Assembly (NCBI GenBank): GCA_039680365.1 | Contig: JBDKTD010000020.1 | Location: 1,521-65,520 of the forward strand | Reading direction: 5' to 3' | From: Clostridiaceae bacterium | GTDB lineage: Bacteria > Bacillota > Clostridia > Christensenellales > CAG-138 | DNA: 64,000 bases | Shown: positions 4,579-19,916 of the stretch, in pieces | Layout: each line of letters opens with the position of its first letter | Numbering within the stretch: the stretch's first letter is position 1 | The notes under the pieces: generated by a model | Seen by the model: the letters and a program-made list of their open reading frames with translations, nothing else | What the model was told of the DNA's origin: nothing | Databases searched by the model: none | Position numbers and translations under genes: made by a program

Positions 4579-5520
4579 ATGCGATATTGTCCGGCGTGCG
4601 GAAAGGCAAACGATGGGGCCGTTTGTGTTTTCTGCGGGAGACCGCTCAGAGGCGGCCTCCGTTCTTCGGTATGGACGGCGAGGGAATTCTGCGTCATTTC
4701 TCTTACTTTGATCGGCGCCGTCATCCTTCTTTTTACCCCGCTTATCAGTTCGCCGCTCGTCGGCTCCTATAGCTATCACGATATTGCGTTTAACCCGGCG
4801 CTCAGCGGCGACGCAATCGGTATGGCCATGGATTACTCCTCGGAGGCGGCATTTACGCTGATTGCGCTCAAAGCCGTAGGGCTGATCTTTTATGCCACCA
4901 TACTGCTCTCTCTCGTTGCACTGTTCCAAAAAATAGATAAACTGACGCAAGTATTTCGCATCATCTCATTGGGGTTGGGTGCGATTTTGATGGTTGCGCT
5001 GCTTTATATTAAAGCGGAGGCGTCGCGGAGTCTGCTCACAAGCAGCCTCGTTTCCGTTCGCTTTGGCGTTTTTCTCGGCGTTGCGTGCCTGATTGCCGCC
5101 GTTGTGCTGAGCTATCGAAGGGATGTACTCACCCGCGAGCTCTACCGCATGCCTTCCAACTCGCACGGCCCCGTCATGGCCGACCCGCCTCTGGAAAAGC
5201 GAGCGGGTGCGCTGGTCTGCACGCGCGGCACGTTTTCCGGCGCACGGTTCGACCTTTCGAAAAGTCCATCGGTCGCCATCGGTCGGGACGCGCGTTCCTG
5301 CCAGATCGTGTTTCCAAAGGACATGCCGCGCATCAGCAGAAAGCACAGTCTCGTGCGGTTCAGTTCGTCGGAGAATTGTTACTATGTTACAGATGTGTCG
5401 CGTAACGGTACTTTTCTTGCCGGCGGCGCTCGCCTGCCCGCGGGGCAGCCCTGCAAACTGGCGCGCGGAACGACGATTGCCTTCGACTCCTCCGGCGCGA
5501 ACGCGTTCTATCTGGAATAA
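4579..5520 (+). CDS. Zinc-ribbon / multi-pass membrane / C-terminal FHA domain protein
   Basis: N-terminus MRYCPACG...CVFCG (CxxC-x8-CxxC), then about 4 hydrophobic helices. The C-terminus is VAIGRDARSCQIVFP..ISRKHSLV...VSRNGTFL (FHA signatures GR, SxxH, NG). RBS GGAAGGGG. Confidence 0.85.
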   Translation: MRYCPACGKANDGAVCVFCGRPLRGGLRSSVWTAREFCVISLTLIGAVILLFTPLISSPLVGSYSYHDIAFNPALSGDAIGMAMDYSSEAAFTLIALKAVGLIFYATILLSLVALFQKIDKLTQVFRIISLGLGAILMVALLYIKAEASRSLLTSSLVSVRFGVFLGVACLIAAVVLSYRRDVLTRELYRMPSNSHGPVMADPPLEKRAGALVCTRGTFSGARFDLSKSPSVAIGRDARSCQIVFPKDMPRISRKHSLVRFSSSENCYYVTDVSRNGTFLAGGARLPAGQPCKLARGTTIAFDSSGANAFYLE

Positions 5521-5564: not shown

Positions 5565-5755
5565 TTTTACAAACGCAAATAAAGGCTTATTAGAAGCTTT
5601 TATATCTAGAGAATTTTACAGATGCAAATAAAGGCTTATTAAAAGCTTTTATATCTGGAGAAGTTTACGGACGTAAATAAAGGCTTATTAAAAGCTTCTT
5701 TATCCGGTACAGTTACTGCAGACGCAAATAAAAGCTCATAAAAGCTTCTATTGTT
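5565..5755. repeat. Four tandem copies of a roughly 49-bp AT-rich repeat in the intergenic gap
   Basis: The core GCAAATAAAGGCTTATTA(A/G)AAGCTTTTATATCT recurs with GCAAAT/GTAAAT at 5575, 5624, 5673 and 5724 (periods 49, 49, 51). The fourth copy is degenerate. Each unit has a 10-bp hairpin (ATAAAGGCTT/AAGCTTTTAT with one G-U) and an AAAAGCTTTT palindrome. Confidence 0.9.
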
Positions 5756-5807
5756 GATAAATGTTGATAAAGAATCCATACATCTATATGAATCAGGGGG
5801 TAAACTC

Positions 5808-6410
5808 ATGAACATGCAGCGTTGTCCCAGCGGACACTACTTCGACAAGTCAAAGTTTGACCCGTGCCCATACTGCAATCCGGCGACGAGTTCGGACAAC
5901 CGTACGATTCCGCTGGACAGCACGACGGCGGGAACCGTGGATCCCAGCTTTGGCGGCGGATGGAACAACTCTTCCGCAGCCGACGACATCGGCGTTACCG
6001 TGCCGCTGCAGTCCGGCAGCGAGGTGACCATCGCGCTCACGCCCAAGGACGAAACAGGCAAGACGTTGGATCCCGTGGTCGGCTGGTTTGTCTGTGTGGA
6101 TGGTCCTGACAAAGGGTCGGACTTCCGCATCCGCAGCGGCAACAACTCGATTGGCCGCGGAACGGGCGCGCAAATTCGCATCCAGAACGACAGCTCGATT
6201 TCCAAGGATAACATGTCCCATGTGGCGTTCGACAATCGCTCTCGCCGGTTCTACTTTGAAGCGGGCGAGGGCAGAAACTTAATCCGCGTTAACGACGAAC
6301 TTCTGCTGCCGCACCAGTCGCGCGAACTGCGCGCGTTCGACCGCGTGCTGCTGGGGCAGACCACTCTGGCGTTTATTCCGCTTTGCGGAGAGGAGTTTTC
6401 TTGGGAATGA
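5808..6410 (+). CDS. Zinc-ribbon + FHA domain protein (soluble)
   Basis: Start at MNMQRCPSGHYF..CPYCN, preceded by an AGGGGG RBS; the TTG at 5751 was rejected. The C-terminal FHA reads FRIRSGNNSIGRG..IRIQNDSSIS...HVAF...LIRVND. Confidence 0.8.
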   Translation: MNMQRCPSGHYFDKSKFDPCPYCNPATSSDNRTIPLDSTTAGTVDPSFGGGWNNSSAADDIGVTVPLQSGSEVTIALTPKDETGKTLDPVVGWFVCVDGPDKGSDFRIRSGNNSIGRGTGAQIRIQNDSSISKDNMSHVAFDNRSRRFYFEAGEGRNLIRVNDELLLPHQSRELRAFDRVLLGQTTLAFIPLCGEEFSWE

Positions 6411-7549
6411 TCGAATACGGAACTGTATTTTTGAACCAAGCGCCGTTTGTAAGCGACAACGCGACCCCGGACGCCGGGTTTCAAACGAATCCCGGTTTCA
6501 GCGCGACGTCGCCTTCGGCTGCGGCCAACACGACGCCTGGCGCCAACACGACGCCGGCCGCCGGATCGACGCCAAACCCAACGCCTCTGGCAGGCACGCT
6601 TGTCGCGTCTTCCGTCAATCCGGAAGGAACGCCGCTGCCAACCGTTACCGACGGCGGGCAGAAGGATTTGATTCTCGGGCTGTTTATTGCCGTTGCCGCG
6701 CTGGCTTGCGCTACTGTGCTGCTGGCGCGCGCGGCGATACGTCTGAAACGCAAGCAGCGTAAGCGCATCCCCGCTCACGGCGCGGCGCAGAAGGCCAGCG
6801 GGCTGGAAGTGGGTAACGCGCACCATATTGGCAAGCGCGGCAATCAGGAAGACTCCTTTGCCATCTCCGATTTGACCGACGGCAAGCTCTGCCGCCACGC
6901 GGGCGTGCTGGCGGTTGTTGCGGACGGCATGGGCGGGCTTGCGGACGGCGAACTCGTCAGCGGCGGCGTCACTTCTTCCGTGATGCGGGAATTCCCGTCT
7001 CTGCCGGAATCCTGGTCGATGCCGCAGAAGCTTTTATACCTGGTGGAAAAAGCCAACGAAGCGGGCAACGCCGTGACCGGCGGGGTCAAGAGCCACGGCG
7101 GATCGACCATGCTTCTGACGCTGATTCAGGATGGCAGCCTCTGGTTTGCCAGCGTGGGCGACAGCCGCATCTGCCTTGTGCGCGGCGGCGGTGTCGTTCA
7201 ACTGACGCGCCCGCATACATATGAGTCCGATCTGGACAAAAAAGCCGCCTGCAATGAAATCTCCTTTGAAGCCGCTTCGGCCGATTCTCAGCGGAAAGCG
7301 CTCACGAGCTACATCGGCATGGGCGAACTCTGCTCGATCGACTACAACAACCAGCCTATTCAGCTGCTGGCGGGCGACTGGATCATTCTGATGACGGACG
7401 GCGTGTTCAACGAGCTGACCAACGCCGAAATCGCGCACGCGCTTTCGGACAACGCGCCTGCCGCCGCCGAACGAATCGAGCGAATGGTGCTCGCCAAGGG
7501 CGACCCGCATCAGGACAACCTCACGGCGGTCGTGTTACGCATCTTTTAA
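6407..7549 (+). CDS. Membrane-anchored PP2C-family Ser/Thr phosphatase
   Basis: ATGA start/stop overlap with the upstream gene. Pro/Thr/Ala-rich N-terminus, one TM helix (LILGLFIAVAALACATVLLA), then PP2C motifs GKRGNQEDSF, VADGMGG, SVGDSR, LMTDGV, DNLTAVV. Confidence 0.85.
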   Translation: MIEYGTVFLNQAPFVSDNATPDAGFQTNPGFSATSPSAAANTTPGANTTPAAGSTPNPTPLAGTLVASSVNPEGTPLPTVTDGGQKDLILGLFIAVAALACATVLLARAAIRLKRKQRKRIPAHGAAQKASGLEVGNAHHIGKRGNQEDSFAISDLTDGKLCRHAGVLAVVADGMGGLADGELVSGGVTSSVMREFPSLPESWSMPQKLLYLVEKANEAGNAVTGGVKSHGGSTMLLTLIQDGSLWFASVGDSRICLVRGGGVVQLTRPHTYESDLDKKAACNEISFEAASADSQRKALTSYIGMGELCSIDYNNQPIQLLAGDWIILMTDGVFNELTNAEIAHALSDNAPAAAERIERMVLAKGDPHQDNLTAVVLRIF

Positions 7550-7645
7550 AGCACCTTCAAACGATTCGACTCTCTTTAACAAGGGCGCGCGAATCAAAAT
7601 GAAAATAATGAAAAGGACACTGGAATCTACTAGGGAGGGAATATT

Positions 7646-8962
7646 ATGAAATCAACCAAGAAATGGGTCGCACTGATTCTGACCCTGCTGCTGGCGCTGT
7701 CGCTGACGGTTACGAGCGCCGCGGCGTCCGAAAACGCCGTTGCCGACGCGCGCAATGGCGTTGTCCGCATCGTGTTTACCTATACGCTGGATGGGGAACC
7801 GGACGGTCAAATGGGCACGGGTTTCTTCGTTGGCGAAGAAGGCAAACCCGTGGAGTATATCCTTACCAACGCGCACGTTGTTACGGTTTACGATCAGTAC
7901 ACCGGAGACGTGCTGGGTACGGCGGACGAAGTGGACGTCGTATTTGACGATTACAACGAAGATTCTACCATGACGGCAAAGGTGCTCAAAATTTTCGACA
8001 ACGGCGTCGATCTCGCGGTGCTCCGGCTGGAAGCGCCGACCACGCTGCGTCAGCCGCTCAAAATGCTCAGCGCCGACTCCGTGGATATCATGGACAAAGT
8101 TTACGCACTGGGCTTCCCGGGAATTGCGGACGATACGAGCGGTATTGTCAGTTCCAATGTTGAAGACGTCACTATTACGAGCGGCAGCGTAACCAAGGAG
8201 TCGTTCATGGAAGGCAGCGTCAACTTCCTGCAGATCGACGCCGCTATCAGCTCCGGCAATTCCGGCGGCCCGCTGGTGGACGCCAACGGCAACGTCGTCG
8301 GTATCAACACGCAGGCTACCAACCCAGACGTTGGAACCGGTCTGGGCCGCGCGCTCTATATCGACTACGCAATGGACTATTTCGATACCATGGGGTATCC
8401 CTACATGAAGGCGTCCGACAACACCGAAGTACCGGTTACGACGGACGAACTGCCCGCGCCGGAACCCGAACCCGCTCCGACGCCGAGCCTGCCATGGTAT
8501 GTCTTTGCGGCAATCGGCGTTGCCGCCGCCGCGATCATCGCGCTGGTAATCGTTCTTGCGCTCAAGAGCAAAAAGAAACAGACGAACGAATATATTGCGC
8601 CCAACCCCGAACCCGCACCGACGCCGCGGGCCTCTTCCGCGCCGTTCAAGGGCAGGCAGATTATGAATGTCGGTCAGGCCAGCTCGCTGGGCGGTAAAAC
8701 GTACCCCGTGCAGGGCAAGCTCGTCATCGGCCGCGATCCGGCCAAGTGCCAGGTTGTGTTCCCGGCAAAAACGCCGGGCATCAGCAGCGCGCACTGCTCC
8801 GTACAGGAAATTGCGCAGGGCGTCGTGGTCACCGACCTCGGCTCCTCCTATGGCACCTTCCTGGAGAACGGAACGAAACTTGAACCCAACAAGCCCTACA
8901 CCGTTCCGATTGGGGAAGCGTTCTATCTGGCTTCCAAGGACAACGGCTTCCGCGTGAAATAA
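7646..8962 (+). CDS. Secreted trypsin-like (S1C/HtrA-like) serine protease - TM helix - cytoplasmic FHA domain fusion
   Basis: Signal peptide MKSTKKWVALILTLLLALSL. Triad context TNAHVV / DLAVLRL / GNSGGPLVD. TM helix WYVFAAIGVAAAAIIALVIVLAL followed by KSKKK. C-terminal FHA LVIGRD..VVFP..ISSAHC...SSYGTFLENG. Confidence 0.85.
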   Translation: MKSTKKWVALILTLLLALSLTVTSAAASENAVADARNGVVRIVFTYTLDGEPDGQMGTGFFVGEEGKPVEYILTNAHVVTVYDQYTGDVLGTADEVDVVFDDYNEDSTMTAKVLKIFDNGVDLAVLRLEAPTTLRQPLKMLSADSVDIMDKVYALGFPGIADDTSGIVSSNVEDVTITSGSVTKESFMEGSVNFLQIDAAISSGNSGGPLVDANGNVVGINTQATNPDVGTGLGRALYIDYAMDYFDTMGYPYMKASDNTEVPVTTDELPAPEPEPAPTPSLPWYVFAAIGVAAAAIIALVIVLALKSKKKQTNEYIAPNPEPAPTPRASSAPFKGRQIMNVGQASSLGGKTYPVQGKLVIGRDPAKCQVVFPAKTPGISSAHCSVQEIAQGVVVTDLGSSYGTFLENGTKLEPNKPYTVPIGEAFYLASKDNGFRVK

Positions 8963-9008
8963 AACCGTAATGGGCGCTGAACTGCGCCCGACGCGGACGA
9001 GGTAACAG

Positions 9009-10457
9009 TTGGAGAGTTTCCAGACACACAAACTATGCTATCACTGCATGCAGAACGCCGTAGAAAACGGCGTCTGCAGGAGCTGCGGAAGCATTGCCGA
9101 AACCGTACAGTCCGTGCCGTATGCTTTGCCATGCGGCACGGTTCTGCATGGCTGCTATCTGCTCGGCACGGTGCTTGGCGCGGGCGGGTTTGGTATTACC
9201 TATATCGCGCTGCGCCTGCCGGAGGGCCGGCGGGTTGCGATTAAGGAGTATTTTCCTGTGGAGGCCGCTTTTCGCGAAACGGGGGATACGTTCGTCTGCA
9301 GCAGCGAAGTCGGCGCGGAAGCGTTTCGCCGCGGGCGTGAACAGTTTCTCAAGGAAGCGCAGACGATTTACCGCCTGCGCGGCTATCCGGGAATTGTGAG
9401 CGTTGAAAAGCTGTTTGAAGAGAACAATACGGCGTACTTCAGCATGGAATACCTCGATGGGTACGATCTCAAGCACCGCGTTGCGCAGGCGGGCGGGCGG
9501 CTGAACGCCGCGGAAACCCTGCAGACGTTCGCGCCCGTGCTGGACGCGCTGGACTACATCCACAGAAGCGGCGTCATCCACCGCGACGTCAGCCCGGACA
9601 ACATTTTTTTATGCCGGAGCGGCGGGGTCAAGCTTATCGATTTCGGCGCGGCGTACGCGCGTTCGCGGGATAACCTGCGCAATATCCAGCTCATCGTCAA
9701 ACAGGGCTACGCGCCCGTGGAACAGTACTATCAGGATGGCGACGTAGGTCCCTGGTCGGATTTGTACGCGCTGTCAAGCGCCATGTATTACTGCCTGACC
9801 GGAACGGTTCCGCCGCCCGCCCTCCAGCGGGCGCAGAAAGACGAACTGGTTTCGCCAACAAAGCTCGGCGCCGCGATCTCCGTCTCTATGGAAGCGGCAA
9901 TCCTCAAGGGGATGTCGGTGGAACGCAGCGCGCGGTTCTCCAGCGCGGCGGAGATGAAAGCGCGGCTGAGCGCCTGCGCGGGGGAGACGCGCGCCGTCTC
10001 GGGCGAAACGGCTCCCGCAAGGTCGCTTCTCTTGTTGCTCAGGCAGGGAACGGATCAGATTCGAGGCGCTTTTCAGCGTAAAACGTCCGCCGAGCGCGGC
10101 GGGAGCAGAGCGGTTGCCCCGCAGACGCAGATGGGTATTTTCTGCGCTTCCGGCGTGTACGTCGGCAACACGTTTCCGCTCACGGACGACCCGCTTCTGC
10201 TGGGACGGGATGCAAACCGCTGCGGCGTCGTCTTTCCGCCGGACGCAACCGGCGTCAGCCGCGTGCATTGCGAAATTCGCGCAAACGCCGCGGCAAAGTG
10301 CATTGTGCTGCGGGACGTCGGCTCGCGGTTCGGAACACAAATTGCCGAAGGCGCGCTGCTGCACGCGGGCGAGGAACAGACGCTGCCCGTCGGCGCGGGG
10401 TTTCTGATCGGCAAAGAATATTTTACGGTCGTGCTGGTGGAGATTGGCAAGCCCTGA
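9009..10457 (+). CDS. Zinc-ribbon Hanks-type Ser/Thr kinase with C-terminal FHA domain (soluble)
   Basis: TTG start after a GAGG RBS. CYHC...CRSCG ribbon. Kinase motifs GAGGFG, VAIKEY, HRDVSPDN, DFGAA, GYAPVEQY. FHA motifs LLLGRD..VVFP..VSRVHC...GSRFGT. Confidence 0.85.
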   Translation: MESFQTHKLCYHCMQNAVENGVCRSCGSIAETVQSVPYALPCGTVLHGCYLLGTVLGAGGFGITYIALRLPEGRRVAIKEYFPVEAAFRETGDTFVCSSEVGAEAFRRGREQFLKEAQTIYRLRGYPGIVSVEKLFEENNTAYFSMEYLDGYDLKHRVAQAGGRLNAAETLQTFAPVLDALDYIHRSGVIHRDVSPDNIFLCRSGGVKLIDFGAAYARSRDNLRNIQLIVKQGYAPVEQYYQDGDVGPWSDLYALSSAMYYCLTGTVPPPALQRAQKDELVSPTKLGAAISVSMEAAILKGMSVERSARFSSAAEMKARLSACAGETRAVSGETAPARSLLLLLRQGTDQIRGAFQRKTSAERGGSRAVAPQTQMGIFCASGVYVGNTFPLTDDPLLLGRDANRCGVVFPPDATGVSRVHCEIRANAAAKCIVLRDVGSRFGTQIAEGALLHAGEEQTLPVGAGFLIGKEYFTVVLVEIGKP

Positions 10458-10503
10458 GGCACAGGGCGATTTCACCGGGCGGCGAAAGACCAAAGGAGAC
10501 AAC

Positions 10504-11223
10504 ATGCGCTTTGATGACGCGGCATATTCCAATATCGGCGGCAGGGACGTCAATGAGGACGCAACGCTCTGCCGTCAGCAGGAAGGCGCGCTGCTCGCCG
10601 CCGTCGCGGACGGCTTAGGCGGTCACGGCGGCGGGGAGATCGCTTCTTCCACCGCGCTCCTTGCACTAAAAGCCAGCCTGCAGCGGCTGATCCCCCCGAA
10701 AGAAGACATACTCCGGACAGTCACTGCGGAGCTCAATCTGGCGGTACTGGCCAAACAAACCGAACAGTTCAAGATGAAAACAACGCTTGCCATGGCGCTG
10801 ACGGACGGGGAGACGCTTGCGTTTCTGCATGTCGGCGACAGCAGGGTTTATTATTTCCACGGCGGAGAGATCGCCTACCAGTCCACCGACCACAGCGTTT
10901 CCCAGCTTGCGGTGCTGGCAAACGAGATCACGAAAGAACAGATTCGTTTCCACGAGGACCGCAGCAGGCTGCTCCGCTCGCTGGGCAGCGAAGGAAGCGC
11001 CGCGCCGGAAATCAAGCTCGTGCCCGGCGCGCCGGTTCCGGGGGACGCGCTTTTACTGTGCACGGACGGGTTCTGGGAATACGTTCTGGAAAAAGAGATG
11101 CAAAAAGAGCTCAAGCGCACGAAGACCGCAAAGGACTGGCTGGAGCAAATGAAAAAGTATATCCGCCGCCGCGCGGGAAAAAGGAACGACAACAACTCCG
11201 CGGTCGCGGTTCGAATTGGATAA
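10504..11223 (+). CDS. PP2C-family Ser/Thr phosphatase (soluble)
   Basis: Start MRFDDAAYS after an AAAGGAG RBS. Motifs GGRDVNEDA, VADGLGGHGGGE, HVGDSR, LCTDGF, DNNSAVAV. Confidence 0.85.
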   Translation: MRFDDAAYSNIGGRDVNEDATLCRQQEGALLAAVADGLGGHGGGEIASSTALLALKASLQRLIPPKEDILRTVTAELNLAVLAKQTEQFKMKTTLAMALTDGETLAFLHVGDSRVYYFHGGEIAYQSTDHSVSQLAVLANEITKEQIRFHEDRSRLLRSLGSEGSAAPEIKLVPGAPVPGDALLLCTDGFWEYVLEKEMQKELKRTKTAKDWLEQMKKYIRRRAGKRNDNNSAVAVRIG

Positions 11224-11297
11224 TACTCCGACCGGCTTTGACCGCTGGAGCGGGCGCGCGCACACAATTGAAAAATAGACTCTCAGGAGGCAGGCTT

Positions 11298-12848
11298 ATG
11301 CGATTTCGTCAAATAAAGAGACTCTTGATGCTCGCCATGGCGCTGGTATTCGCGCTGGCGGGCATACCGTCCGCGCTTGCGCAGGACGAGGCGCAGCTGC
11401 AGATTGCGGGCGGCAACGCCAGCGGGGACGTATACCAGATCGTGTTTTACTCCAGTGCGCCGGATGCGCCCACGGCGGAAACGCTGAGCGTCCAGATTGA
11501 CGGCCAGCCCGTAGATCTCAAGAGCGTCAACCCGATTTCCTACGCCGATCCGGGCACGACGTATGTTATTCTGTTCGACACCAACACCGCCGTAACCGAG
11601 CGCGCCCTGCCGGATATGAAGAGCATTGCCGAGCGGGTTCTCGCTGGCATGGGGACGCAGGACAACGCTCTGATTGCACCGTTGGGCGGAAAAATTGCAG
11701 CTTCGGACATCACGGACGACGCGGATAAACTGAACGCCTCCATTGCGGCGCTGGCAAAGGACGAAGGCGGAACCGATCTGTACTCCACCATGTCCGACGC
11801 GCTCAAACTGCTCAACGGAACGGATGTTTCCCTGCGGCCCAGAAAGTGCCTGATCGTCATGGCGGACGGGCTGGACAGCTCATCCAGCGGCATTTCCGCG
11901 CTGGAACTTTCCAACCAGATTTCAACTTCGAACGTGCCGATCTATACGATCGCGCTGACCTACAACACAAAGACAACCGAACGTGTGGAAGCGGCAAAGA
12001 CAATCTCCGGCTTTGCGCGCCAGTCGCCCGGCGGCCTGAGCCAGATGCTCAAGACCGACGGCGTTACGGTGGAAAGCGCGGCGGACGCGATTTTGGCGCA
12101 GCATGATTTAAACTACCTTGCCGTTCTGGACAGCGCGAAAGTGCGCGCGGTTTCGCAGGGAGACAGCGCGGAAGTGGCGCTGACGTTTACCGCCGCTTCC
12201 GGCACGCTTTCCGACACGCAGGCGCTCTCGCTTGCGAACCTGCCGAAGGCGGAAGCCACGGCGCAGCCTACCGCGGAACCCGCCGCTACTGTTGCGGAAT
12301 CGCCCCAGCCGGTCATTGATAACGGCGAGGAGAAGAGCTTTTTCGGCGTTGTAAAAGAAAAACTGCTTGCGCTGCCCGTCTGGGTTCTCTTTACGGCGGG
12401 TGCGGCGGTTGTCGTCGTTATTGCGCTGATCGTTTTACTGGCGAGCCTCAGCAAGAAAAAGAAAAAGAGCAAGGCGCCCGCGCCCGGTACGGTCGTCCGC
12501 TTTGGCGCAGTTTCCGAAGAGACGCCGAGCATGTCCGGTGCGCCGGATATCTGCGTGGTGCGCCTCGGTGAAAAGGAAAAAATCTGCTGCGAAATCACCA
12601 TGCCGCTGAGCTTTGCCATCGGCAAAAATCCGAAAAACGCGCAGTTGATTCTGGCGGACGATCCGGTGATCGCTCCCGTGCAGTGCCGTCTCCTCTGGAA
12701 GGACGGCGCGGTTTGGGTGGAGGAAAAGAGTAAAAAGAGCAAAACGCTGCTCAACGGCTCACCCATCGTGCGCCCCGTCCGCCTGAATTCGGGGGACGTG
12801 CTCCAGATGGGTTCGTTCGAGTACCGCGTGTTCTGGGAACAACGCTAA
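11298..12848 (+). CDS. Secreted vWA domain - TM helix - cytoplasmic FHA-like domain protein
   Basis: Start MRFRQIKRLL after AGGAGG, with signal peptide ...PSALAQD. vWA-like core YVILFDTNTAV ... GGTDLYS ... CLIVMADGLDSSS. TM helix WVLFTAGAAVVVVIALIVLLASL followed by SKKKKKSK. The C-terminal FHA fold has altered signature residues (GK, no SxxH). Confidence 0.75.
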   Translation: MRFRQIKRLLMLAMALVFALAGIPSALAQDEAQLQIAGGNASGDVYQIVFYSSAPDAPTAETLSVQIDGQPVDLKSVNPISYADPGTTYVILFDTNTAVTERALPDMKSIAERVLAGMGTQDNALIAPLGGKIAASDITDDADKLNASIAALAKDEGGTDLYSTMSDALKLLNGTDVSLRPRKCLIVMADGLDSSSSGISALELSNQISTSNVPIYTIALTYNTKTTERVEAAKTISGFARQSPGGLSQMLKTDGVTVESAADAILAQHDLNYLAVLDSAKVRAVSQGDSAEVALTFTAASGTLSDTQALSLANLPKAEATAQPTAEPAATVAESPQPVIDNGEEKSFFGVVKEKLLALPVWVLFTAGAAVVVVIALIVLLASLSKKKKKSKAPAPGTVVRFGAVSEETPSMSGAPDICVVRLGEKEKICCEITMPLSFAIGKNPKNAQLILADDPVIAPVQCRLLWKDGAVWVEEKSKKSKTLLNGSPIVRPVRLNSGDVLQMGSFEYRVFWEQR

Positions 12849-12872
12849 TTTACGTCGAGGAGAAACAGATAC

Positions 12873-15617
12873 GTGCTGAAACCGGAAGAAACATGCATGC
12901 GCTGCTTTGCGCAGCTCGCGAAGCCAAAAGGCGTCTGTCCCCAGTGCGGCTGCGACAATGCCGCGGCCTCCAACGAAGCGCACCAGCTGGAATGCGGCAG
13001 CATTCTGGCGGGTACCTACCTTATCGGCAAGGTGCTTGGACAGGGCGGGTTTGGAATTACCTACATCGGCTGGGACCTCAACCTGGATATCAAGGTTGCG
13101 ATCAAGGAATATTACCCCGAAGGGTGCGTCACGCGCGACGCGCATACGCATATTTCCGTTTTGACCTACGCGGGTCCGAAGGAAGCGTACTTTCAAAAGG
13201 GCAAGGAGCGGTTCGTCAACGAAGCCAAAGCGCTTGCCAAATTCCCAGGCGACAGCGGCGTGGTCGGCGTTCGCACGTTCTTCTACGAAAACGGGACGGC
13301 GTATATCGTAATGGACTTCGTGGAGGGCGAAACGCTCAAGGCGTACGCCCAGCGCCGGGGTGGTAAGCTGCCCGCGGCGGAAGTGCTTTCGCTGTTTCAG
13401 CCAATCTTCCGCTCGCTCGCCCGCGTGCACGACAGCGGCCTGCTGCACCGCGACATCAGCCCGGACAACCTCATGCTGAAAACGGACGGCATGCTGGCGC
13501 TGCTCGACTTTGGCGCCGCGCGTCAGATTTCCGCAGAAGGCGAACACTCCAACACAATCAACGTTAAGCACGGGTTCGCCCCGGAAGAGCAGTACCGCAC
13601 GCGCGGCGAACAGGGCCCGTGGACGGACGTTTACGCGCTTTGTGCGACGATTTACCGCCTCACTACGGGCAGAACGCCGCCGGAAGCGCTTGACCGCATG
13701 GCCGACGGAACGCTGCTCACGCCCCCCAATCAACTGGGCGCGGACTTTACGCCCGCGCAGGAAGCGGCAATTCTCCACGGTCTGGCGGTGCGCGCTTCCG
13801 ACCGGACAAGGGATGTAAGGCAACTGGAGAAGGAACTCTACGGCGGGGAAAGAACGGTTTTTGCAACGTCGCCTTTGAGCGTTTCTTATGAACCCGCCGC
13901 GCCGCAGTCGTCGTTTATCACGCAGCCGCTGACGAGAAGCGAGGAACCCGCAGCGTCGAGCGCGCCTCGGTCGTCGTTTGTCACACAGCCGCAATCTTCC
14001 TATGTCACACAGCCGCAACCGGCGAGCGTGGCACCCGTGAAAGACAGCGGGGCTTTTGCGGGAAACACTCCTGATGCGGCGCCGCTGGACGACGCAGAGC
14101 GGCAGGAAGAAAAACGCAAAAAGGGTAAAAAAGCTCGCACGATTGCTACGTCTATCGCTTTTGCAGTTTTGCTGATTATGACGTTGTTTGCATTTACCGG
14201 CATAGGTGGGTTTCTTCTGATCGGCTTACTCATTCTGGATGCTATCGGGCTGTTCTGGCTTTTGCTGCACAAGGGTGTACTCAAAAACGTAGATCATTCA
14301 GGAAAGATTGAGAAAGCCGCTTCGTTGATCACGTTATCCGGCGGCGCGTTGTCGCTTGCGCTGATCCTCGCGGGAGTTATCGCCGCCCTGAGCGCTCCTT
14401 CCGGTCCGGCGTCGGCACAAGCCGCCACGGAACCGCCGGCTTCCGCTGAACAGCCCGCCGCCACGCTCGACCCGACAATCGTCATTGACTGGCAGGATCC
14501 CACCATCGAGGCGGGAATTCGCAGCGCCATCGGCAAGAGCGAAGGGGAAGCGATCACGACGGGAGACGTGGCGTACATCTACAGCCTTAAAATAGCGGGT
14601 GATACGCTCTATATCAACGACGATTCTGTTTGGCCGTATGTTAATACATATGACAACACCTACTCGGTGGACAACGGGCAGACCTCGCTGCCGATTTCCG
14701 ACCAGACAATTTCGCTTGCAGACTTGGTAAACTTCGGCGGCTTAACAGTGCTGAATGTGTATGCGGTCAACGTATCCGGTTTGGAGTCGCTGAACGACTG
14801 CATTAGTTTGAATACGGTTTGGCTGGATGCCTGCGGCAATGTCGACCTGAATGAGTTTTCCAGTTGCGATCAATTATACGAACTTTCTATTTCTGACTGC
14901 GACGAGGTTGTGCTGACGGGCGCAGGAGAAAAGCTTTTTATCGGCAGTCTCTCGCTGAGCAACTGCGGTACGGTTGACGCTGGGGAACTCGCGCAGTTTA
15001 CCAACTTGAGTTCGCTGAGTATTTGGGCCGCTCCCCTGTCTTCCGCTGAACAAATCGGCAGCATGACGAACCTGACGAGTCTTGCAATGGGGTATAACGG
15101 TGTTTCGAATCTCGACTTTCTGCGGAATCTAGCGAATTTGTCTTCTTTATCGCTGAGCGGAGAAGAGATTACGGAACTTCCTTCGCTGGACGCGCTGACG
15201 GAGCTGACATTGCTTCATCTGACGTTCTGCACGCTGGACGATTCCGATCTGCAGCAGATTGCTTCTCATACCGCACTTACAGAGCTGATGCTCGACGGAT
15301 GCCCGTTTTCGGATTTGTCGTTTGTTGAAAATCTAGCCAATTTAGTTGTTATCTCATTTGACAGTTCGGAAGTTCGGGATATTACTCCTTTGAAGAATCT
15401 GACAAAGCTGGAGACGCTCTGGCTTATGTATATTGACGTAAACGATATCAGCGCGCTGAAGAACTGTAAGAGCCTGAAACGCGTTTACATAGTGAGCACA
15501 CGGGTTTCGAACTATTCTCCGCTGGAAGGGCTGCCTATCGAGTATATCAGCGTTGATGCTGCGTACACGGATCAAGTTCGCTCGATCCTGCCCAACGCGA
15601 TCGTTGATTCCTGGTAA
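12873..15617 (+). CDS. Zinc-ribbon Ser/Thr receptor kinase with extracellular leucine-rich-repeat domain
   Basis: GTG start after AGGAG. CMRC..CPQCG ribbon. Kinase motifs GQGGFG, VAIKEY, HRDISPDN, DFGAA, APEEQY. Two TM helices around residues 425-470 and one near 495. The C-terminal 330 aa or so carry internalin-like LRRs (..LTNLSSLSL.., DISALKNCKSLKRVYI). Confidence 0.85.
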   Translation: MLKPEETCMRCFAQLAKPKGVCPQCGCDNAAASNEAHQLECGSILAGTYLIGKVLGQGGFGITYIGWDLNLDIKVAIKEYYPEGCVTRDAHTHISVLTYAGPKEAYFQKGKERFVNEAKALAKFPGDSGVVGVRTFFYENGTAYIVMDFVEGETLKAYAQRRGGKLPAAEVLSLFQPIFRSLARVHDSGLLHRDISPDNLMLKTDGMLALLDFGAARQISAEGEHSNTINVKHGFAPEEQYRTRGEQGPWTDVYALCATIYRLTTGRTPPEALDRMADGTLLTPPNQLGADFTPAQEAAILHGLAVRASDRTRDVRQLEKELYGGERTVFATSPLSVSYEPAAPQSSFITQPLTRSEEPAASSAPRSSFVTQPQSSYVTQPQPASVAPVKDSGAFAGNTPDAAPLDDAERQEEKRKKGKKARTIATSIAFAVLLIMTLFAFTGIGGFLLIGLLILDAIGLFWLLLHKGVLKNVDHSGKIEKAASLITLSGGALSLALILAGVIAALSAPSGPASAQAATEPPASAEQPAATLDPTIVIDWQDPTIEAGIRSAIGKSEGEAITTGDVAYIYSLKIAGDTLYINDDSVWPYVNTYDNTYSVDNGQTSLPISDQTISLADLVNFGGLTVLNVYAVNVSGLESLNDCISLNTVWLDACGNVDLNEFSSCDQLYELSISDCDEVVLTGAGEKLFIGSLSLSNCGTVDAGELAQFTNLSSLSIWAAPLSSAEQIGSMTNLTSLAMGYNGVSNLDFLRNLANLSSLSLSGEEITELPSLDALTELTLLHLTFCTLDDSDLQQIASHTALTELMLDGCPFSDLSFVENLANLVVISFDSSEVRDITPLKNLTKLETLWLMYIDVNDISALKNCKSLKRVYIVSTRVSNYSPLEGLPIEYISVDAAYTDQVRSILPNAIVDSW

Positions 15618-15721
15618 ATCGCCTTCAACCGTCCGACATTGATGGAAGAAGCGGAATATGCTCGCTATTGCTTGAGGGATAACGCGCTGATAGCGTGAGG
15701 GAACCGCCAAGGGGGTTAAAC

Positions 15722-17830
15722 ATGAATCCGGAACTCATCTGCATGCACTGCATGGCGCAGCTGGAAGAACCCAAAGGAGTTTGCCCGGTCTGCGGGTTCG
15801 ATAACGCGTCCGCGGAAAATGCGCCCAACCAGCTGGAATGCGGGAGCATTCTCGCGGGGACGTATCTAATCGGCTGCGTGCTGGGTCAGGGCGGGTTCGG
15901 AATCACCTATATCGGGCTCGACCTCAACCTGAATCTCAAGGTAGCGATCAAGGAGTTCTACCCGGAGGGTTGCGTCACCCGCGACGGGCGGACGCATACC
16001 TCCGTTGTTCCGCTGCCCGGCGAAAAGAAGGCCTTCTTCGAAAAAGGCAGGGAAAAGTTCGTCAGCGAGGCGCAGATTCTGGCGAGGTTTACCGACGAGC
16101 CGTCCATTGTAGGGGTGCGCGGCTTCTTCCACGAAAACGGCACCGCGTACATCGTGATGAACTTTGTGGAGGGCGAAACGCTGAAAGCCCGTGCTCTTAG
16201 AAACGGCGGCAGGCTTCCATCTGCGGAAGTGCTTGAACTGATGAAACCGCTTTGCGCTTCCCTTTCACGCGTGCACGAAGCGGGGCTGCTGCACCGGGAT
16301 ATCAGCCCGGATAACATCATCGTCAAAAAGAACGGCATGCCGGTTCTGCTCGATTTTGGCGCGGCGCGGCAGATTTCCATGACAGGCGAGCACTCCAACA
16401 CTATCAACGTTAAGCACGGGTTCGCGCCGGAGGAGCAGTACCGCACGCACGGCGAGCAGGGGCCGTGGACGGACGTCTACGCGCTTTGCGCAACCATCTA
16501 CCGCCTTACCACGGGCGTTACTCCGCCGCAGGCGCTGGACCGGCTGACAAGCGACGTTCCGATTACCCTGCCGAACCGGCTGGGCGCGGACTTTACCCCC
16601 GCGCAGGAAGCGGCGGTCATGCACGGGCTAGCCGTGCGTTCGAAGGATCGAATCTCCAGCATGGATCAGCTGCTCGGCGAACTTTCGCGCACCGCGGTCA
16701 AGCCATCCAAGCCGCCCAAGCCACCCGAGCCGCCGATCCCTGCGAGACCCAAGTTCCTGTTGCCGGTGCTGATTGGCTGCGGTGCGGTAGCGCTGACACT
16801 GCTGCTGATACTGGTGCTCAAACCTTCCGGTCAAACGGGCGGCGGGGACGGCGCGGCGCAAGCCGCGTTCAGCGCCCAGCAGTCGGCCAAAGCGAATGCG
16901 CCGGAGGCGACAACTGCGCCGCAGGTTACATCCGAACCGACGCTCGCTCCCGAATCGACCGAGGAGCAGGGAAACCGCTTTCAGGTCGGCCAGGTGTACG
17001 ACGGTTTGCTTGCGGCGGGATCGCACTATTCGGCGGTGCTCAATTCCGATGGAACCGTCTCCGTTTATGGCGGCGGCGAGAGCGCGATTGAAGCCTCGTC
17101 CTGGACGAATGTTGCCCAGCTTTCCGGCTACGGCGATCTGCTGGCGGGGCTTCGCTCCGACGGAACAGTGGTTGTGACGGGCACCGACGCGCAGTATCTG
17201 GATATCGGCGTGATTGAAGGCTGGACGGACATCGTTCAAGTTGAAGTCGGTTATCACGGCCTGCTTGCGCTCACGCGGGATGGATACGTCCTGTATACCG
17301 GCAACATCAACACGGGAGAACAGGATTACGGCAGAAGCGACTGCGTCGATTGGTATGGCGTAAAGAAGCTGATCAAGGGCGACGAGCACATGGTTGCCAT
17401 CAACGCCGACGGCACGATGGACTCGGCCGGAATGGATAACGTGAACCAGTGCGCGGTGAGCGGCTTTAGCAGCGTCATCGATGCGGCCACCGGCTGCCAG
17501 TGCACGTACATCCTGCATGCAGACGGCACGGTGGACGTCATTGGCGGCAACCCAAAATACGACTTTGGCCAGTTTGACGCCGCTGATTGGACGGATATTA
17601 TCGCCATTGAATGTGGCGACCGGTTTGTGATAGGCTTAAAGAGCGACGGAACCGTTGTTGCCGCAGGCGACAATGAATACGGCCAGAAAAACGTTCGAAC
17701 CTGGCAGAATATCGTTGCCATCTATGCGGGAACCCGCAATGCTTATTCTTTGGACGTCAACGGCGAGCTCTACTGCACCGACTACAACAGCGGCGGACAG
17801 AAAGAAATCGACGGCACGTTTATTGACTGA
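15722..17830 (+). CDS. Zinc-ribbon Ser/Thr receptor kinase with extracellular RCC1-like beta-propeller
   Basis: Start MNPELICMHC after GGGGG. The kinase half is a close paralog of 12873. One TM helix (FLLPVLIGCGAVALTLLLILVL). The ectodomain has periodic DGTV...G...W..I..I..G blades and GDNEYGQ, typical of RCC1 repeats. Confidence 0.85.
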   Translation: MNPELICMHCMAQLEEPKGVCPVCGFDNASAENAPNQLECGSILAGTYLIGCVLGQGGFGITYIGLDLNLNLKVAIKEFYPEGCVTRDGRTHTSVVPLPGEKKAFFEKGREKFVSEAQILARFTDEPSIVGVRGFFHENGTAYIVMNFVEGETLKARALRNGGRLPSAEVLELMKPLCASLSRVHEAGLLHRDISPDNIIVKKNGMPVLLDFGAARQISMTGEHSNTINVKHGFAPEEQYRTHGEQGPWTDVYALCATIYRLTTGVTPPQALDRLTSDVPITLPNRLGADFTPAQEAAVMHGLAVRSKDRISSMDQLLGELSRTAVKPSKPPKPPEPPIPARPKFLLPVLIGCGAVALTLLLILVLKPSGQTGGGDGAAQAAFSAQQSAKANAPEATTAPQVTSEPTLAPESTEEQGNRFQVGQVYDGLLAAGSHYSAVLNSDGTVSVYGGGESAIEASSWTNVAQLSGYGDLLAGLRSDGTVVVTGTDAQYLDIGVIEGWTDIVQVEVGYHGLLALTRDGYVLYTGNINTGEQDYGRSDCVDWYGVKKLIKGDEHMVAINADGTMDSAGMDNVNQCAVSGFSSVIDAATGCQCTYILHADGTVDVIGGNPKYDFGQFDAADWTDIIAIECGDRFVIGLKSDGTVVAAGDNEYGQKNVRTWQNIVAIYAGTRNAYSLDVNGELYCTDYNSGGQKEIDGTFID

Positions 17831-17910
17831 TACAATCCGGCCGGGACGATTCAACCCGGCAAGAACAAGTTGGTGAGCACCGCAAAATAACAACGATACA
17901 TGGAGTTATT

Positions 17911-19857
17911 ATGATCAATCCTGAATTTACCTGCATGAACTGCCTGCTGCAGCTCAACGAGCCCAAAGGAGTCTGCCCGCACTGCGGGTTTGACAACGCG
18001 GCCTGCGAAAACGCGCCGCACCAGCTGGAGTGCGGCAGCATCCTCGCCGGATCGTATATGGTCGGGCGCGTGCTGGGGCAGGGCGGGTTCGGCATTACGT
18101 ATGTCGGGCTGGATCTGAACCTCGAAATGAAAGTGGCGATCAAGGAGTATTATCCGGAAGGGTGCGTTACGCGCGATACCCATACGCATATTTCCGTAAT
18201 GACATATGCCGGAGAAAAGGAACTGCAGTTCGAAAAGGGCAAGGAGCGCTTTGTGAGCGAAGCAAAATCGCTCGCCAAGTTCGCCGGCGATCCCGGAATT
18301 GTAGGCGTACGCTCGTTCTTCTACGAAAACGGCACGGCGTATATCGTAATGGACTATGTCGAAGGCGAAACGCTCAAGTCGTACGTTGCCAAGCGCGGCG
18401 GCAAGCTGCCCGCGGCGGAGGTGCTGGCGCTGTTTCAGCCGCTGCTTCGTTCGCTTAAGCGCGTGCATGATATCGGCCTGCTGCACCGGGACGTAAGCCC
18501 CGATAACATCATTCTGCGAAAAAACGGTACGCTGGTTTTGCTGGACTTTGGCGCGGCGCGGCAGATGTCCGCTTCCGGCGAGCACTCCAACACCATTAAC
18601 GTTAAACACGGGTTCGCGCCGGAAGAGCAGTACCGCACGCGCGGCGAGCAGGGCCCCTGGACGGATATCTACGCCCTGGCCGCAACCATGTACCGGCTGA
18701 TGACGGGAGTAATGCCCCCGCAAGCGCTCGACCGCCTCACCAACGAGGCCGTTCTTACGCCGCCCAGCGACTTTGGCGCCGCTCTGACCCACGCGCAGGA
18801 AAGCGCGCTGCTTCACGCGCTGGCCATCCGCGCCGAATACCGCACCAGAGATATGGCGCAGTTTGAAGCGGAACTCTATGCGGGTCAGCCAGTGGTCAAC
18901 GCGTCTTCGTCGGCAGTCCGCTCGGAGCGCGTTTCCAGTACCCCGCCGGTCGTGCCGCAGGCTGCGCCGCAAGCAGCGGCCAAACCCAAAGTCAAACGCC
19001 CCGCGCTGACCATCGGTTTGGGAGCCGCGGCGCTTATCCTTGTGATTTTTGCGATCGGCGCCATTATCGACAGCGTCAATGCGGCGCCGGACGAGCCCGC
19101 CTCGGCGAGCGGAAAGGTGCAGATCGAAGCAAAAGCGCACGCGGGCGTTGCGGACGTCAACCAGCCGGCGAACAGCGACAGCTCCGGCAACATCTCCGCT
19201 ACCAGCGAACCCGCGAGCGACCCCGTCGTCACGCCGGACATCGTTACGCTGACGCTGGGATATGGCGATACGTACTGGTGCACGCCGGATGATTTCGATC
19301 TGCCTTTCGAAGTAGCCGATAGCGACGTAGACTGGGAGGTCGTGTCCTACGACTCCGGCGTTTCCTGCGAAATCGGCATGATCCGCGCGGGAAACGTCCA
19401 GTTTGACCCGGCAAAGGAATACAACTCCATCGCCGTTGTCAATGGAACCACACCCAACGGCACGCAATTGCAGTATAACGTATTGGTTGGCGATGGTCAG
19501 ACGTATTCGTTCGACTGGTCGTCGTCCGCGCGCAGCATGAAAGCCGTGCAGGGATATACCTATATTGCGACGCCGGAAATACGCAACTGCGACGGGTTTA
19601 CGCTCAACTTTGGATTTGATCTCAGCGAAGGCAAAATCGAATACCCGAACTGGTCGGTCTGGGTGCGCGAAAACGGCACGGACTGGGTGTTCATTCAGGA
19701 TATCGATGTGGCGGAAGACACTTATCTGGACTATGACATCGTGTTCGACCGCCCGATTTCGTTTACCGAGATCATCGTCCAGCCGCAGAAACAATATAAC
19801 TATTTTTCCTACTCAAACTGGTATGAGGTTAAAAATCTCGTGTTCAGCGCACGCTGA
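17911..19857 (+). CDS. Zinc-ribbon Ser/Thr receptor kinase with an uncharacterised beta-rich ectodomain
   Basis: MINPEFTCMNC..CPHCG. The kinase half is a close paralog of 12873 and 15722. One TM helix (LTIGLGAAALILVIFAIGAII). I do not recognise the roughly 260-aa C-terminal domain. Confidence 0.85.
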   Translation: MINPEFTCMNCLLQLNEPKGVCPHCGFDNAACENAPHQLECGSILAGSYMVGRVLGQGGFGITYVGLDLNLEMKVAIKEYYPEGCVTRDTHTHISVMTYAGEKELQFEKGKERFVSEAKSLAKFAGDPGIVGVRSFFYENGTAYIVMDYVEGETLKSYVAKRGGKLPAAEVLALFQPLLRSLKRVHDIGLLHRDVSPDNIILRKNGTLVLLDFGAARQMSASGEHSNTINVKHGFAPEEQYRTRGEQGPWTDIYALAATMYRLMTGVMPPQALDRLTNEAVLTPPSDFGAALTHAQESALLHALAIRAEYRTRDMAQFEAELYAGQPVVNASSSAVRSERVSSTPPVVPQAAPQAAAKPKVKRPALTIGLGAAALILVIFAIGAIIDSVNAAPDEPASASGKVQIEAKAHAGVADVNQPANSDSSGNISATSEPASDPVVTPDIVTLTLGYGDTYWCTPDDFDLPFEVADSDVDWEVVSYDSGVSCEIGMIRAGNVQFDPAKEYNSIAVVNGTTPNGTQLQYNVLVGDGQTYSFDWSSSARSMKAVQGYTYIATPEIRNCDGFTLNFGFDLSEGKIEYPNWSVWVRENGTDWVFIQDIDVAEDTYLDYDIVFDRPISFTEIIVQPQKQYNYFSYSNWYEVKNLVFSAR

Positions 19858-19875
19858 TTGACGGGTAATAAACAG

Positions 19876-19916
19876 CGACCCCTTTGCCGTAGGCAAAGGG
19901 GTCGTTTTGTGTTTTT
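19876..19916. terminator. Strong bidirectional intrinsic terminator between the kinase island and lysR
   Basis: 13-bp perfect stem CGACCCCTTTGCC/GGCAAAGGGGTCG with a 3-nt loop, followed by TTTTGTGTTTTT. Confidence 0.85.

Follow-up and report, generated by a model that had tools for sequence, protein, structure and literature searches.

Three tandem PpkA-like kinases in a Clostridia genome share one zinc-ribbon-kinase module and carry unrelated predicted sensor domains

Three genes for predicted receptor Ser/Thr kinases lie in tandem in a 64,000-nucleotide stretch of contig JBDKTD010000020.1 (assembly GCA_039680365.1). This stretch was analysed as a whole and is called the window below; coordinates are window positions unless stated otherwise. 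The genes, here named K_LRR, K_RCC1 and K_UNK, fill positions 12873-19857 on the forward strand, separated by short gaps and each preceded by a purine-rich ribosome-binding site. K_LRR (914 aa, 12873..15617, defined by its open reading frame and translation) starts at the GTG at 12873 behind a GAGGAG site. K_RCC1 (702 aa, 15722..17830) starts at the ATG at 15722 behind AAGGGGG, and K_UNK (648 aa, 17911..19857), whose ectodomain is of an immunoglobulin (Ig) plus carbohydrate-binding module (CBM) type, follows a GGAG site. The start of the middle gene is most likely this ATG rather than the GTG at 15695, because of the AAGGGGG site and the alignment with its paralogues. An intrinsic-terminator-like hairpin on the same strand, with a 15-bp stem followed by a T run (19874..19906), lies directly 3' of the last kinase and is the sole strong one of its kind between 5500 and 20500.

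In GenBank the three proteins are consecutive entries (MEN6417460.1, MEN6417461.1 and MEN6417462.1) of a 'Clostridiaceae bacterium' metagenome-assembled genome (MAG) and are annotated plainly as protein kinases. For K_UNK, a 100%-identical protein is present in the homology database (P0001, MEN6417462.1), an exact-sequence look-up gave no match, and full-length orthologues show 47-86% identity. In a MAG contig with repeats of about 1 kb, kinase modules might have been collapsed or chimerised into a false array. The repeats are however too divergent to mis-join, with pairwise DNA identities of 70-73%, and syntenic arrays occur in a complete 3.7-Mb chromosome as well as in other MAGs. An independent single-run assembly (Logan SRR18482851, locus L076) reproduces the same array of LRR, RCC1 and third kinase followed by the same LysR gene. 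The array is thus not an assembly artefact, and that explanation can for practical purposes be dismissed.

The N-terminal halves of the three proteins (about 322-326 aa) are closely related, with pairwise BLASTP identities of 71.3%, 73.6% and 69.2% and scores of 477-523 bits. This bears out the initial annotation of this DNA, which had described the first 330 or so residues as paralogous and the corresponding DNA as recognisably similar; the identical runs it quoted are all present in our four-way alignment, which includes a further kinase encoded at 9009. That kinase had been called more divergent, and it shares only 39-42% identity (233-253 bits) with the three N-terminal halves, carries a C-terminal FHA domain and has no predicted transmembrane (TM) segment. 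The shared module consists of a CxxC-x10-CxxC zinc-ribbon-like motif and a Hanks kinase domain and spans about 325 residues. The kinase domain ends at about aa 326 in K_LRR and K_UNK and at about aa 322 in K_RCC1. In K_LRR, the conserved and apparently exchangeable module corresponds to aa 1-326 (12873..13850, forward strand), as delimited by paralogue identity, by comparison with a related locus (L001, below) and by GC content at third codon positions (GC3).

Four cysteines (C8, C11, C22 and C25) form the CxxC-x10-CxxC motif and are invariant in all four kinases, at 12894-12947, 15740-15793, 17932-17985 and 9036-9086. The motif falls below Pfam significance in the four proteins, yet 119 of the 121 family members from related loci have it. 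Similar Cys pairs open two FHA proteins encoded upstream, one with TM segments (4588-4640) and one small (about 5820-5880). A putative zinc ribbon starts six of the ten proteins of the gene cluster and may be a shared assembly or localisation handle.

All four kinases match the Pfam family Pkinase (PF00069, cut-off 31.7 bits) with scores that span 92-100.9 bits, listed as 92 (K_LRR), 93.5 (K_RCC1), 100.9 and 98.5. The glycine-rich GQGGFG, K78, the alpha-C E117, H192-R193-D194, N199, D212-F213-G214 and A236-P237-E239 are invariant in all four. Their catalytic loop reads HRDISPDN or HRDVSPDN (K_LRR aa 192-199; window 13440-13470), with a Ser in place of the Lys of canonical HRDxKxxN. Of the 121 family members in the loci 115 have this Ser, as do 119 of 120 database hits; HRDxSPxN is a family-wide signature, together with the zinc ribbon and KHGFAPEE. 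Because the replacement is family-wide and recurs in the solved structure of PpkA, an active kinase of the threonine-phosphorylation pathway of type VI secretion systems (T6SS), it is best read as a subfamily signature and does not mark these proteins as pseudokinases. The lost catalytic-loop Lys might be made up for by a Lys that is conserved in the P+1 region (V-K-H-G-F-A-P-E-E).

The PpkA kinase domain (5hnv) is the best solved relative of the module (E 6.5e-47, 163 bits, residues 49-319), and its HRDISLDN aligns with HRDISPDN. PknB, PknA and StkP reach about 60-79 bits. With 477-523 bits among the three proteins, against 163 for PpkA and at most 79 for PknB and StkP, the similarity of the kinase halves is far above that between arbitrary Hanks kinases. 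Judged by these alignments, the three proteins would belong to a clade found in Clostridia with a PpkA-like kinase module. Pfam did not find PASTA (PF03793) in any of the three, and the NCBIfam model PknB_PASTA_kin scored 124-138 bits on the kinases, its cut-off being 450; PASTA does occur in L028, a more distant member of the family.

Homology among the three proteins stops at the end of the kinase domain, at residue 322-326 or so, and the juxtamembrane linkers and TM segments are already unrelated. The C-terminal halves showed no significant BLASTP similarity (best E=0.008 over 32 aa, then 0.13 and 0.28). The earlier view that nothing is shared after the TM segment therefore stands for the C-terminal halves and places the end of homology too late. 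A simple hydropathy scan found one hydrophobic segment in K_RCC1 (aa 343-369), one in K_UNK (aa 363-393) and three in K_LRR (aa 421-511). Since the N-terminal kinase would be cytoplasmic and the number of segments is odd in each case, the C-terminal domain of each protein is predicted to be extracytoplasmic. The initial annotation regarded this as an inverted topology. It is the normal arrangement of bacterial Hanks receptor kinases, in which the kinase lies N-terminal to the TM segment and families differ in their appended domains (10.1101/2025.01.12.632604).

The three ectodomains are of different folds: an alpha/beta LRR (leucine-rich repeat) solenoid, an RCC1 beta-propeller, and an Ig domain with a jelly roll. 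The LRR ectodomain cassette of K_LRR (14409..15614, forward strand) was delimited by Pfam, by synonymous divergence (dS), by a GC3 below that of its surroundings and by its divergence from the closest genome. About 13 internalin-like LRRs can be counted by eye (aa ~610-900), and Pfam finds LRR_4 at 57.9 bits (cut-off 27) plus LRR_EndoS and LRR_14. The NCBIfam model internalin_A aligns with aa 608-887 at 77.8 bits against a cut-off of 1600; by these matches the ectodomain is an LRR of internalin type and the protein no internalin. The K_LRR linker is rich in Ser, Thr, Pro and Gln and holds three tandem SS[FY][IV]TQP repeats (SSFITQP, SSFVTQP and SSYVTQP; aa ~345-382, window ~13905-14015), which are candidate Thr autophosphorylation and FHA-docking sites. 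Among the three kinases, these repeats and the three hydrophobic segments occur only in K_LRR, the others having one segment. K_RCC1 has a short Pro/Lys linker, then its TM segment and an RCC1-type beta-propeller (RCC1_2, 68.5 bits, cut-off 22; WD40_RLD matches partially, at 51 bits against 150). K_UNK continues after the kinase with a linker, one TM segment, a low-complexity spacer and a two-domain all-beta ectodomain.

This third ectodomain (19231..19854, forward strand) had been left unnamed as beta-rich, with structure prediction proposed as a way forward. We aligned 18 orthologous ectodomains and modelled it with AlphaFold2. The two-domain model (pLDDT 89.9, pTM 0.81) contains two all-beta domains, and the C-terminal domain modelled by itself reached a pLDDT of 88.3. 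In a Foldseek search of the Protein Data Bank (PDB), the two-domain model matched carbohydrate-binding proteins almost exclusively. The top matches were Micromonospora sialidase entries (E 1.3e-4, probability 1.0) over 256-266 alignment columns, more than the 208 residues of the model, so both domains are covered. In the Micromonospora sialidase, an Ig-like linker precedes a galactose-binding module. Further matches of the two-domain model were CBM29, the CBM32 of the Clostridium perfringens Mu toxin and neuropilin b1. The C-terminal domain alone found CBM29 (E 2e-3), CBM32 (TMq 0.57) and F5/8-type C domains. Against CBM structures the jelly roll reaches a Foldseek probability of 1.0, yet E-values of just 2e-3 to 1e-4 and TMq of 0.41-0.57; every one of the top matches is a CBM29, CBM32 or F5/8-type C domain.

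A sequence-profile search of the PDB with this ectodomain gave only antibody matches at chance level (E above 0.4). A profile search of 1.8 billion representative proteins returned only 168 relatives. With its N-terminal part the profile matches Big_2 repeat proteins. Its C-terminal part recurs as a mobile domain, in small proteins that have one to three copies of it and also at the C-terminal end of a Zn-ribbon-LRR protein and of further kinases with LRRs. Taken together, the models and profiles describe two domains, a Big_2-like Ig domain (about aa 441-528) and after it a CBM-like jelly roll (about aa 528-648), and glycan binding is a reasonable inference from this modelled fold. The claim that the three ectodomains are unrelated is thus upheld, and the unnamed one has gained a putative identity at the level of fold. 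The Ig plus CBM-like unit was also seen downstream of LRR_4 repeats (P0131, P0141 and P0146). The hosts are canonical Hanks kinases that are not PpkA-like and one kinase-less Zn-ribbon-LRR protein, so sensor domains would be shuffled among different kinase families too.

We surveyed relatives with one genome per species, which gave 75 loci, and found that both copy number and ectodomain repertoire vary at this locus, the sensors being of at least 10 types. Syntenic arrays in related genomes hold three to six kinases with LRR, RCC1, Ig plus CBM-like, Bmp, Peripla_BP_6 or TPR sensors. The window has the order LRR - RCC1 - Ig/CBM. Loci L001 and L002 have LRR - RCC1a - RCC1b - Ig/CBM, L003 has RCC1 - RCC1 - LRR - RCC1 - RCC1 (the locus ends there), and L004 has LRR - RCC1 - Bmp - Ig/CBM - Peripla_BP_6 - TPR. 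L016 reads RCC1 - Ig/CBM, and L008, L010, L011 and L013-L015 contain the Ig/CBM kinase only. Dispersed family members in relatives carry TPR, Peripla_BP_4, BspA-type LRR, PASTA or a 600-residue RCC1 region, homology-database matches add ANF-receptor and choline-binding sensor types, and the ectodomains of 45 close relatives form ten clusters. In L001 and L002 the orthologue of window K_RCC1 is their second RCC1 kinase, RCC1b, as judged by identity to RCC1b and RCC1a of 92% and 71% in the kinase and of 78% and 42% in the ectodomain. A deletion chimera of RCC1a and RCC1b was considered and rejected; both halves match the second copy.

Comparison with the closest genome, a complete Christensenellaceae MAG chromosome (OY771363.1, locus L001; background DNA identity about 0.90-0.95), suggests where exchange has taken place. 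The K_LRR kinase module is 97% identical to its L001 orthologue in protein, and DNA identity is 0.93 across it. Precisely where this module ends, at 13788, identity drops to about 0.5; it is 0.65-0.82 across the LRR and RCC1 ectodomains and returns to 0.93-0.96 at 17767, where the third kinase begins. A divergent island (13788-17767; identity 0.5-0.8) is thus set between flanks at 0.90-0.95, and the extra RCC1a gene of L001, absent from the window, sits inside it. The island has a dS of 0.95-1.02 against 0.33-0.42 in the adjacent kinase modules; within K_LRR the values are 0.95 for the LRR cassette and 0.34 for the kinase half. Because dS is raised in the island as well, the pattern points to recombinational replacement rather than to relaxed constraint alone. 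GC3 in K_LRR is 0.75 in the kinase module and 0.59-0.61 in the linker, TM and LRR region (13851-15614), with 0.72-0.79 in surrounding genes. This break inside the gene suggests that the sensor cassette of K_LRR was laterally acquired.

In L003, the modules of the LRR kinase and of an RCC1 kinase are 95-96% identical in DNA (dS 0.08-0.10). Their near-identity begins with the first base of the start codon and breaks off at nt 975 (about codon 325). In L004, module dS is 0.61 for the RCC1/Bmp pair, 0.68 for the Peripla_BP_6/TPR pair and above 1 for the others. These comparisons support an exchange unit with the Zn-ribbon-kinase module on one side and a cassette of linker, TM segment(s) and ectodomain on the other. 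Together with the varied arrays of relatives, the shared modules of L003 strengthen the initial annotation's proposal of duplication followed by sensor-domain swapping. L003 also contains a whole RCC1 kinase gene twice (L003 positions 10001-12184 and 16917-19100) at 99.4% DNA identity on either side of the LRR kinase; the two copies would stem either from segmental duplication in the very recent past or from faulty co-assembly.

In a different history, gene conversion would have made the kinase halves of three originally unrelated receptor kinases alike (concerted evolution), with neither duplication nor sensor swapping. Conversion would yield a tract bounded precisely by the module ends, as in L003, and in a neighbour-joining tree of the kinase modules those of L003 and L004 group partly by genome. 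The modules of the window, L001 and L002 however group by ectodomain type, and the three window copies differ by a dS of 1.2-1.4. The shared Zn-ribbon, HRDxSPxN and KHGFAPEE signatures make the modules homologous by descent in any case. Conversion would leave the same present-day pattern as duplication plus replacement, so the question concerns mechanism only. We consider a history of conversion without duplication unlikely. Recent gene conversion among the window's three copies was looked for and rejected: besides their dS of 1.2-1.4, the maximum DNA identity over 30 codons is 0.86 and is reached where the proteins are most conserved.

The three paralogous kinase modules are saturated at synonymous sites (dS 1.19-1.39), with a dN/dS of 0.16-0.20. 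Since dS is this high and each copy has its own orthologues in related Christensenellaceae-like genomes, the copies are old and constrained and are no product of a recent local triplication. Thus the tandem triplication first proposed holds in so far as the copies are paralogous and in tandem, and fails as a recent local event. A recent triplication of one gene, with homologous ectodomains that diverged past recognition, would fit the tandem layout, common orientation and similar overall architecture. It is refuted by the three different folds, and the same-ectodomain orthologues of each copy elsewhere also speak against it; we regard it as extremely improbable.

Between orthologues (window against L001 or L002), dN/dS was 0.04-0.10 for the kinase modules, 0.11-0.20 for the ectodomains and 0.08-0.55 for the linker and TM regions. 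This comparison of kinase half and ectodomain had been suggested as a check, and it indicates that evolution of the kinase is two to five times slower than that of the sensors, with all parts under purifying selection. Whole-domain dN/dS of 0.11-0.20 gave no signal of positive selection on the ectodomains. The family may accordingly be called diversifying in its repertoire and copy number, and not at the level of codon selection.

The three receptor kinases close a co-directional cluster that starts near 4579, and all genes described here lie on the forward strand. The first (4579..5520) encodes a Zn-ribbon protein with TM segments and an FHA domain (translation; partial matches to NCBIfam FhaB and TagH-type FHA models) and is conserved in L001-L003, L007 and L018. 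A small protein (5814..6410) has a Cys-rich N terminus and an FHA-like C terminus, the latter finding FHA-type open reading frames of relatives with phmmer; the protein has no family-library match, and its position is conserved across Clostridia loci. PP2C phosphatase a (6383..7549) has an N-terminal membrane segment and matches Pfam PP2C_2, PP2C and SpoIIE, with a partial Stp1/IreP-type match. The next gene (7646..8962) encodes a signal peptide, an HtrA-like trypsin protease predicted outside (Trypsin_2, 83 bits), a TM segment and an FHA domain inside (42 bits). It is followed by the soluble Zn-ribbon kinase of the same family with its C-terminal FHA domain (9009..10457; Pfam, alignment, hydropathy and BLASTP) and by PP2C phosphatase b (10444..11223; Pfam and NCBIfam). 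A signal-peptide protein with a vWA domain outside, a TM segment and an FHA domain inside (11298..12848; FHA 36.9 bits, a weak VWA_2 match and a TIGR03436 VWA match) adjoins the array upstream, in a conserved position.

The array is thus preceded by two PP2C genes and five FHA-domain genes, a linkage that is conserved in relatives. The conserved order is Zn-FHA, PP2C, protease-FHA, (kinase-FHA), PP2C, (vWA-FHA) and receptor kinase(s). MAGs labelled as Lachnospiraceae, Oscillospiraceae and rumen Clostridiales still keep it where protein identity is as low as about 30%. Among the 76 sequences formed by the 75 related loci and the window, 55 contain FHA, 48 PP2C and 48 the protease. Dispersed family members are without FHA, protease or vWA neighbours. 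All NCBIfam matches of the ten cluster proteins stay below the cut-offs of their models, and a scan of the cluster genes (4579-19857, within the 64-kb window) found no T6SS component among them. The cluster is flanked by a multi-pass membrane protein, LysR and an ABC transporter. Upstream, 31-3314 holds genes for a 393-aa protein and a 681-aa multi-pass membrane protein, and GC content over 1-6000 is 0.46-0.51, below that of the signalling cluster (about 0.60).

We propose that the locus is probably a multi-input signalling island, in which paralogous type-II receptor Ser/Thr kinases join one kinase module to variable sensors, feed a shared phospho-Thr/FHA pathway and lie at a recombination hot spot. 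The anatomy and linkage of the genes are observed, and the signalling steps follow the PknB and PpkA paradigms. Each protein would combine a near-invariant cytoplasmic module with a gene-specific cassette of juxtamembrane linker, TM segment(s) and extracytoplasmic sensor. A ligand bound outside would drive dimerisation of the kinase, as in PknB and PpkA, and the kinase would then autophosphorylate Thr residues in its activation loop and juxtamembrane linker; the activation-loop SNT and the three SS[FY][IV]TQP repeats of K_LRR are candidate sites. Phospho-Thr would recruit the FHA proteins of the operon, namely the HtrA-like protease-FHA, vWA-FHA, kinase-FHA and two small FHA proteins, and the two PP2C phosphatases would reset the system. 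With kinase modules this similar, the three receptors probably act on the same partners and bring several external inputs to one phospho-Thr/FHA pathway. In the T6SS pathway, PpkA works with the PP2C phosphatase PppA and the FHA protein Fha1. This mechanism seems the most economical because the kinase is PpkA-like and stands beside the kinds of partner, PP2C and FHA, that PpkA has there.

The ectodomains might instead serve assembly or adhesion, either keeping the extracellular protease and vWA domains of their operon partners in place or binding host or cell-wall structures, with the kinases reporting on or controlling an envelope complex instead of detecting free ligands. LRR, RCC1 and vWA are classical protein-protein interaction folds, the partners put protease and vWA outside and FHA inside, and PpkA itself carries a periplasmic vWA domain. 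Close relatives however carry the small-molecule-binding Peripla_BP_4, Peripla_BP_6 and Bmp domains, or PASTA, in the same place, and family members at dispersed sites have no FHA, protease or vWA genes beside them. We judge this alternative to be distinctly unlikely. Because relatives carry PASTA and solute-binding domains (for amino acids, nucleosides or sugars), the domain assignments favour the view that the variable cassette generally serves to sense ligands.

A system of anti-phage defence or inter-bacterial conflict, with variable receptors and a defence-triggering kinase, was also considered. The PADLOC kinase models PD-T4-6 and mad6 match the kinase domains at 130-167 bits, the protease matches the RT-Protease and LmuA models, and the receptor repertoire is variable. 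These matches are to generic kinase and trypsin domains, with the same strength as the PknB_PASTA model, and partners specific to defence, such as an effector, nuclease or methylase, are absent. The order of the operon is moreover conserved across Clostridia like that of a housekeeping signalling module, and the ectodomains are predicted to point out of the cell, whereas the kinase defences known so far respond to phage products inside it. Defence was thus rejected as the main explanation and is very improbable.

Several points weigh against our proposal of a multi-input island. Activity, topology, ligands and substrates are all predicted from sequence; the topology rests on a simple hydropathy scan, and convergence on common substrates is drawn from the similarity of the modules and the operon context. 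The replacement of the catalytic-loop Lys by Ser is tolerated in PpkA and would be tolerated here by analogy. The CBM-like assignment is at the level of fold (TM 0.4-0.57, E about 1e-3 to 1e-4), and the ectodomain of K_UNK matches no Pfam family. On the evolutionary side, the neighbour-joining tree of kinase modules carries no support values, L003 and L004 are metagenome co-assemblies in which some junctions could be assembly chimeras, and the present data give no signal that distinguishes gene conversion from duplication plus replacement.

Under our proposal, the kinase module would be recombined with sensor cassettes at this hot spot by duplication, gene conversion or homologous exchange, so that related genomes differ in the number and kind of their sensors. 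A bolder version, which we offer tentatively and hold to be possible rather than probable, is that the ~1-kb Zn-ribbon-kinase module serves as a portable homology arm for swapping sensor cassettes, and sometimes whole genes, between paralogues and strains, with the end of the operon as a dedicated hot spot. If true, this would be a Ser/Thr-kinase counterpart of cassette-type variation, allowing rapid re-tooling of cell-surface sensing, and it would be attached to a Gram-positive analogue of the T6SS PpkA-PppA-Fha switch that controls an envelope output.

Most of what is known about bacterial Hanks receptor kinases comes from a small number of PASTA and mycobacterial cases. The clade described here is large in gut and rumen Clostridia and carries LRR, RCC1, CBM-like, TPR, PASTA and three kinds of solute-binding domain on almost the same kinase, so the sensor is plainly modular. 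It offers a natural panel for asking how varied ectodomains activate one kinase, and which signals (glycans, nutrients or proteins) Christensenellaceae-type gut anaerobes monitor. The sharp, reproducible boundary at about residue 325 suggests a cut site for building chimeric receptor kinases.

Among known systems, PpkA (PDB 5hnv) is the best solved relative and shares the Ser of HRDIS-x-DN and the K-x-G-F-AP-x-EQY of the P+1 region. Like the kinases of this locus, it is an N-in receptor kinase associated with vWA and encoded beside a PP2C phosphatase and FHA proteins. The locus differs in belonging to a Gram-positive-type organism, with no T6SS genes in the cluster, and in having its vWA domain on a separate FHA protein and not on the kinase. 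The kinases have an additional N-terminal zinc-ribbon-like motif and come as paralogues with LRR, RCC1 or CBM-like ectodomains, and the operon has five FHA proteins and an HtrA-like protease.

The PASTA kinases PknB, PrkC and StkP share the topology of kinase, linker, TM segment and ectodomain, and likely the mode of activation by dimerisation and Thr autophosphorylation. The actinobacterial fhaA-fhaB-pstP-rodA-pbpA-pknA-pknB operon likewise has tandem paralogous kinases with FHA and PP2C partners. By contrast, the three genes here are without PASTA and the operon is without rodA or pbpA, the kinase is distant (about 60-79 bits) and its loop lacks the Lys. Mycobacterium tuberculosis PknD, PknH, PknE and PknG-TPR resemble the family in combining one kinase fold with varied sensors in one genome. 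PknD is, like K_RCC1, a propeller receptor kinase, its propeller being NHL-type and not RCC1. The mycobacterial kinases however lie scattered and have kinase domains that differ far more among themselves, and the searchable literature gave no account of cassette-like exchange at sharp module boundaries in them. By composition, the Sulfolobus network of ArnA (zinc-finger-FHA), ArnB (vWA) and the kinases ArnC and ArnD is also similar, with Zn-ribbon-FHA, vWA, Hanks kinases and Ser/Thr phosphatases together. It differs in being archaeal, with cytoplasmic proteins, a PP2A or PTP phosphatase and no known receptor ectodomains.

The main text of the 2025 preprint atlas of bacterial Ser/Thr kinases cited above for receptor topology (10.1101/2025.01.12.632604) mentions neither PpkA nor zinc ribbons nor LRR. 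We found no description of the Zn-ribbon/PpkA-like clade, of the FHA/PP2C/HtrA operon or of cassette exchange of sensors, in a literature whose incomplete coverage makes this weak evidence. As far as checked, the clade, the PpkA affinity outside T6SS, the sharply bounded module exchange and the sensor repertoire are thus undescribed.

K_LRR had also been likened to plant receptor kinases. The resemblance is one of analogy: plant LRR receptor-like kinases and oomycete LRR-TMKs also connect an extracellular LRR through the membrane to a Hanks-fold kinase, and occur in tandem arrays with varied ectodomains. LRR and kinase were assembled independently in plants and oomycetes (PMC10463195). At this locus the kinase is N-terminal and nearest to bacterial PpkA rather than Pelle/RLK, and the LRRs are of internalin type. 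The LRR-kinase described here is thus a further, bacterial convergence with an unrelated kinase subfamily, not a homologue of plant LRR receptor-like kinases. The principle of one kinase with many sensors is already known, and the locus is an informative example of it rather than a new category.

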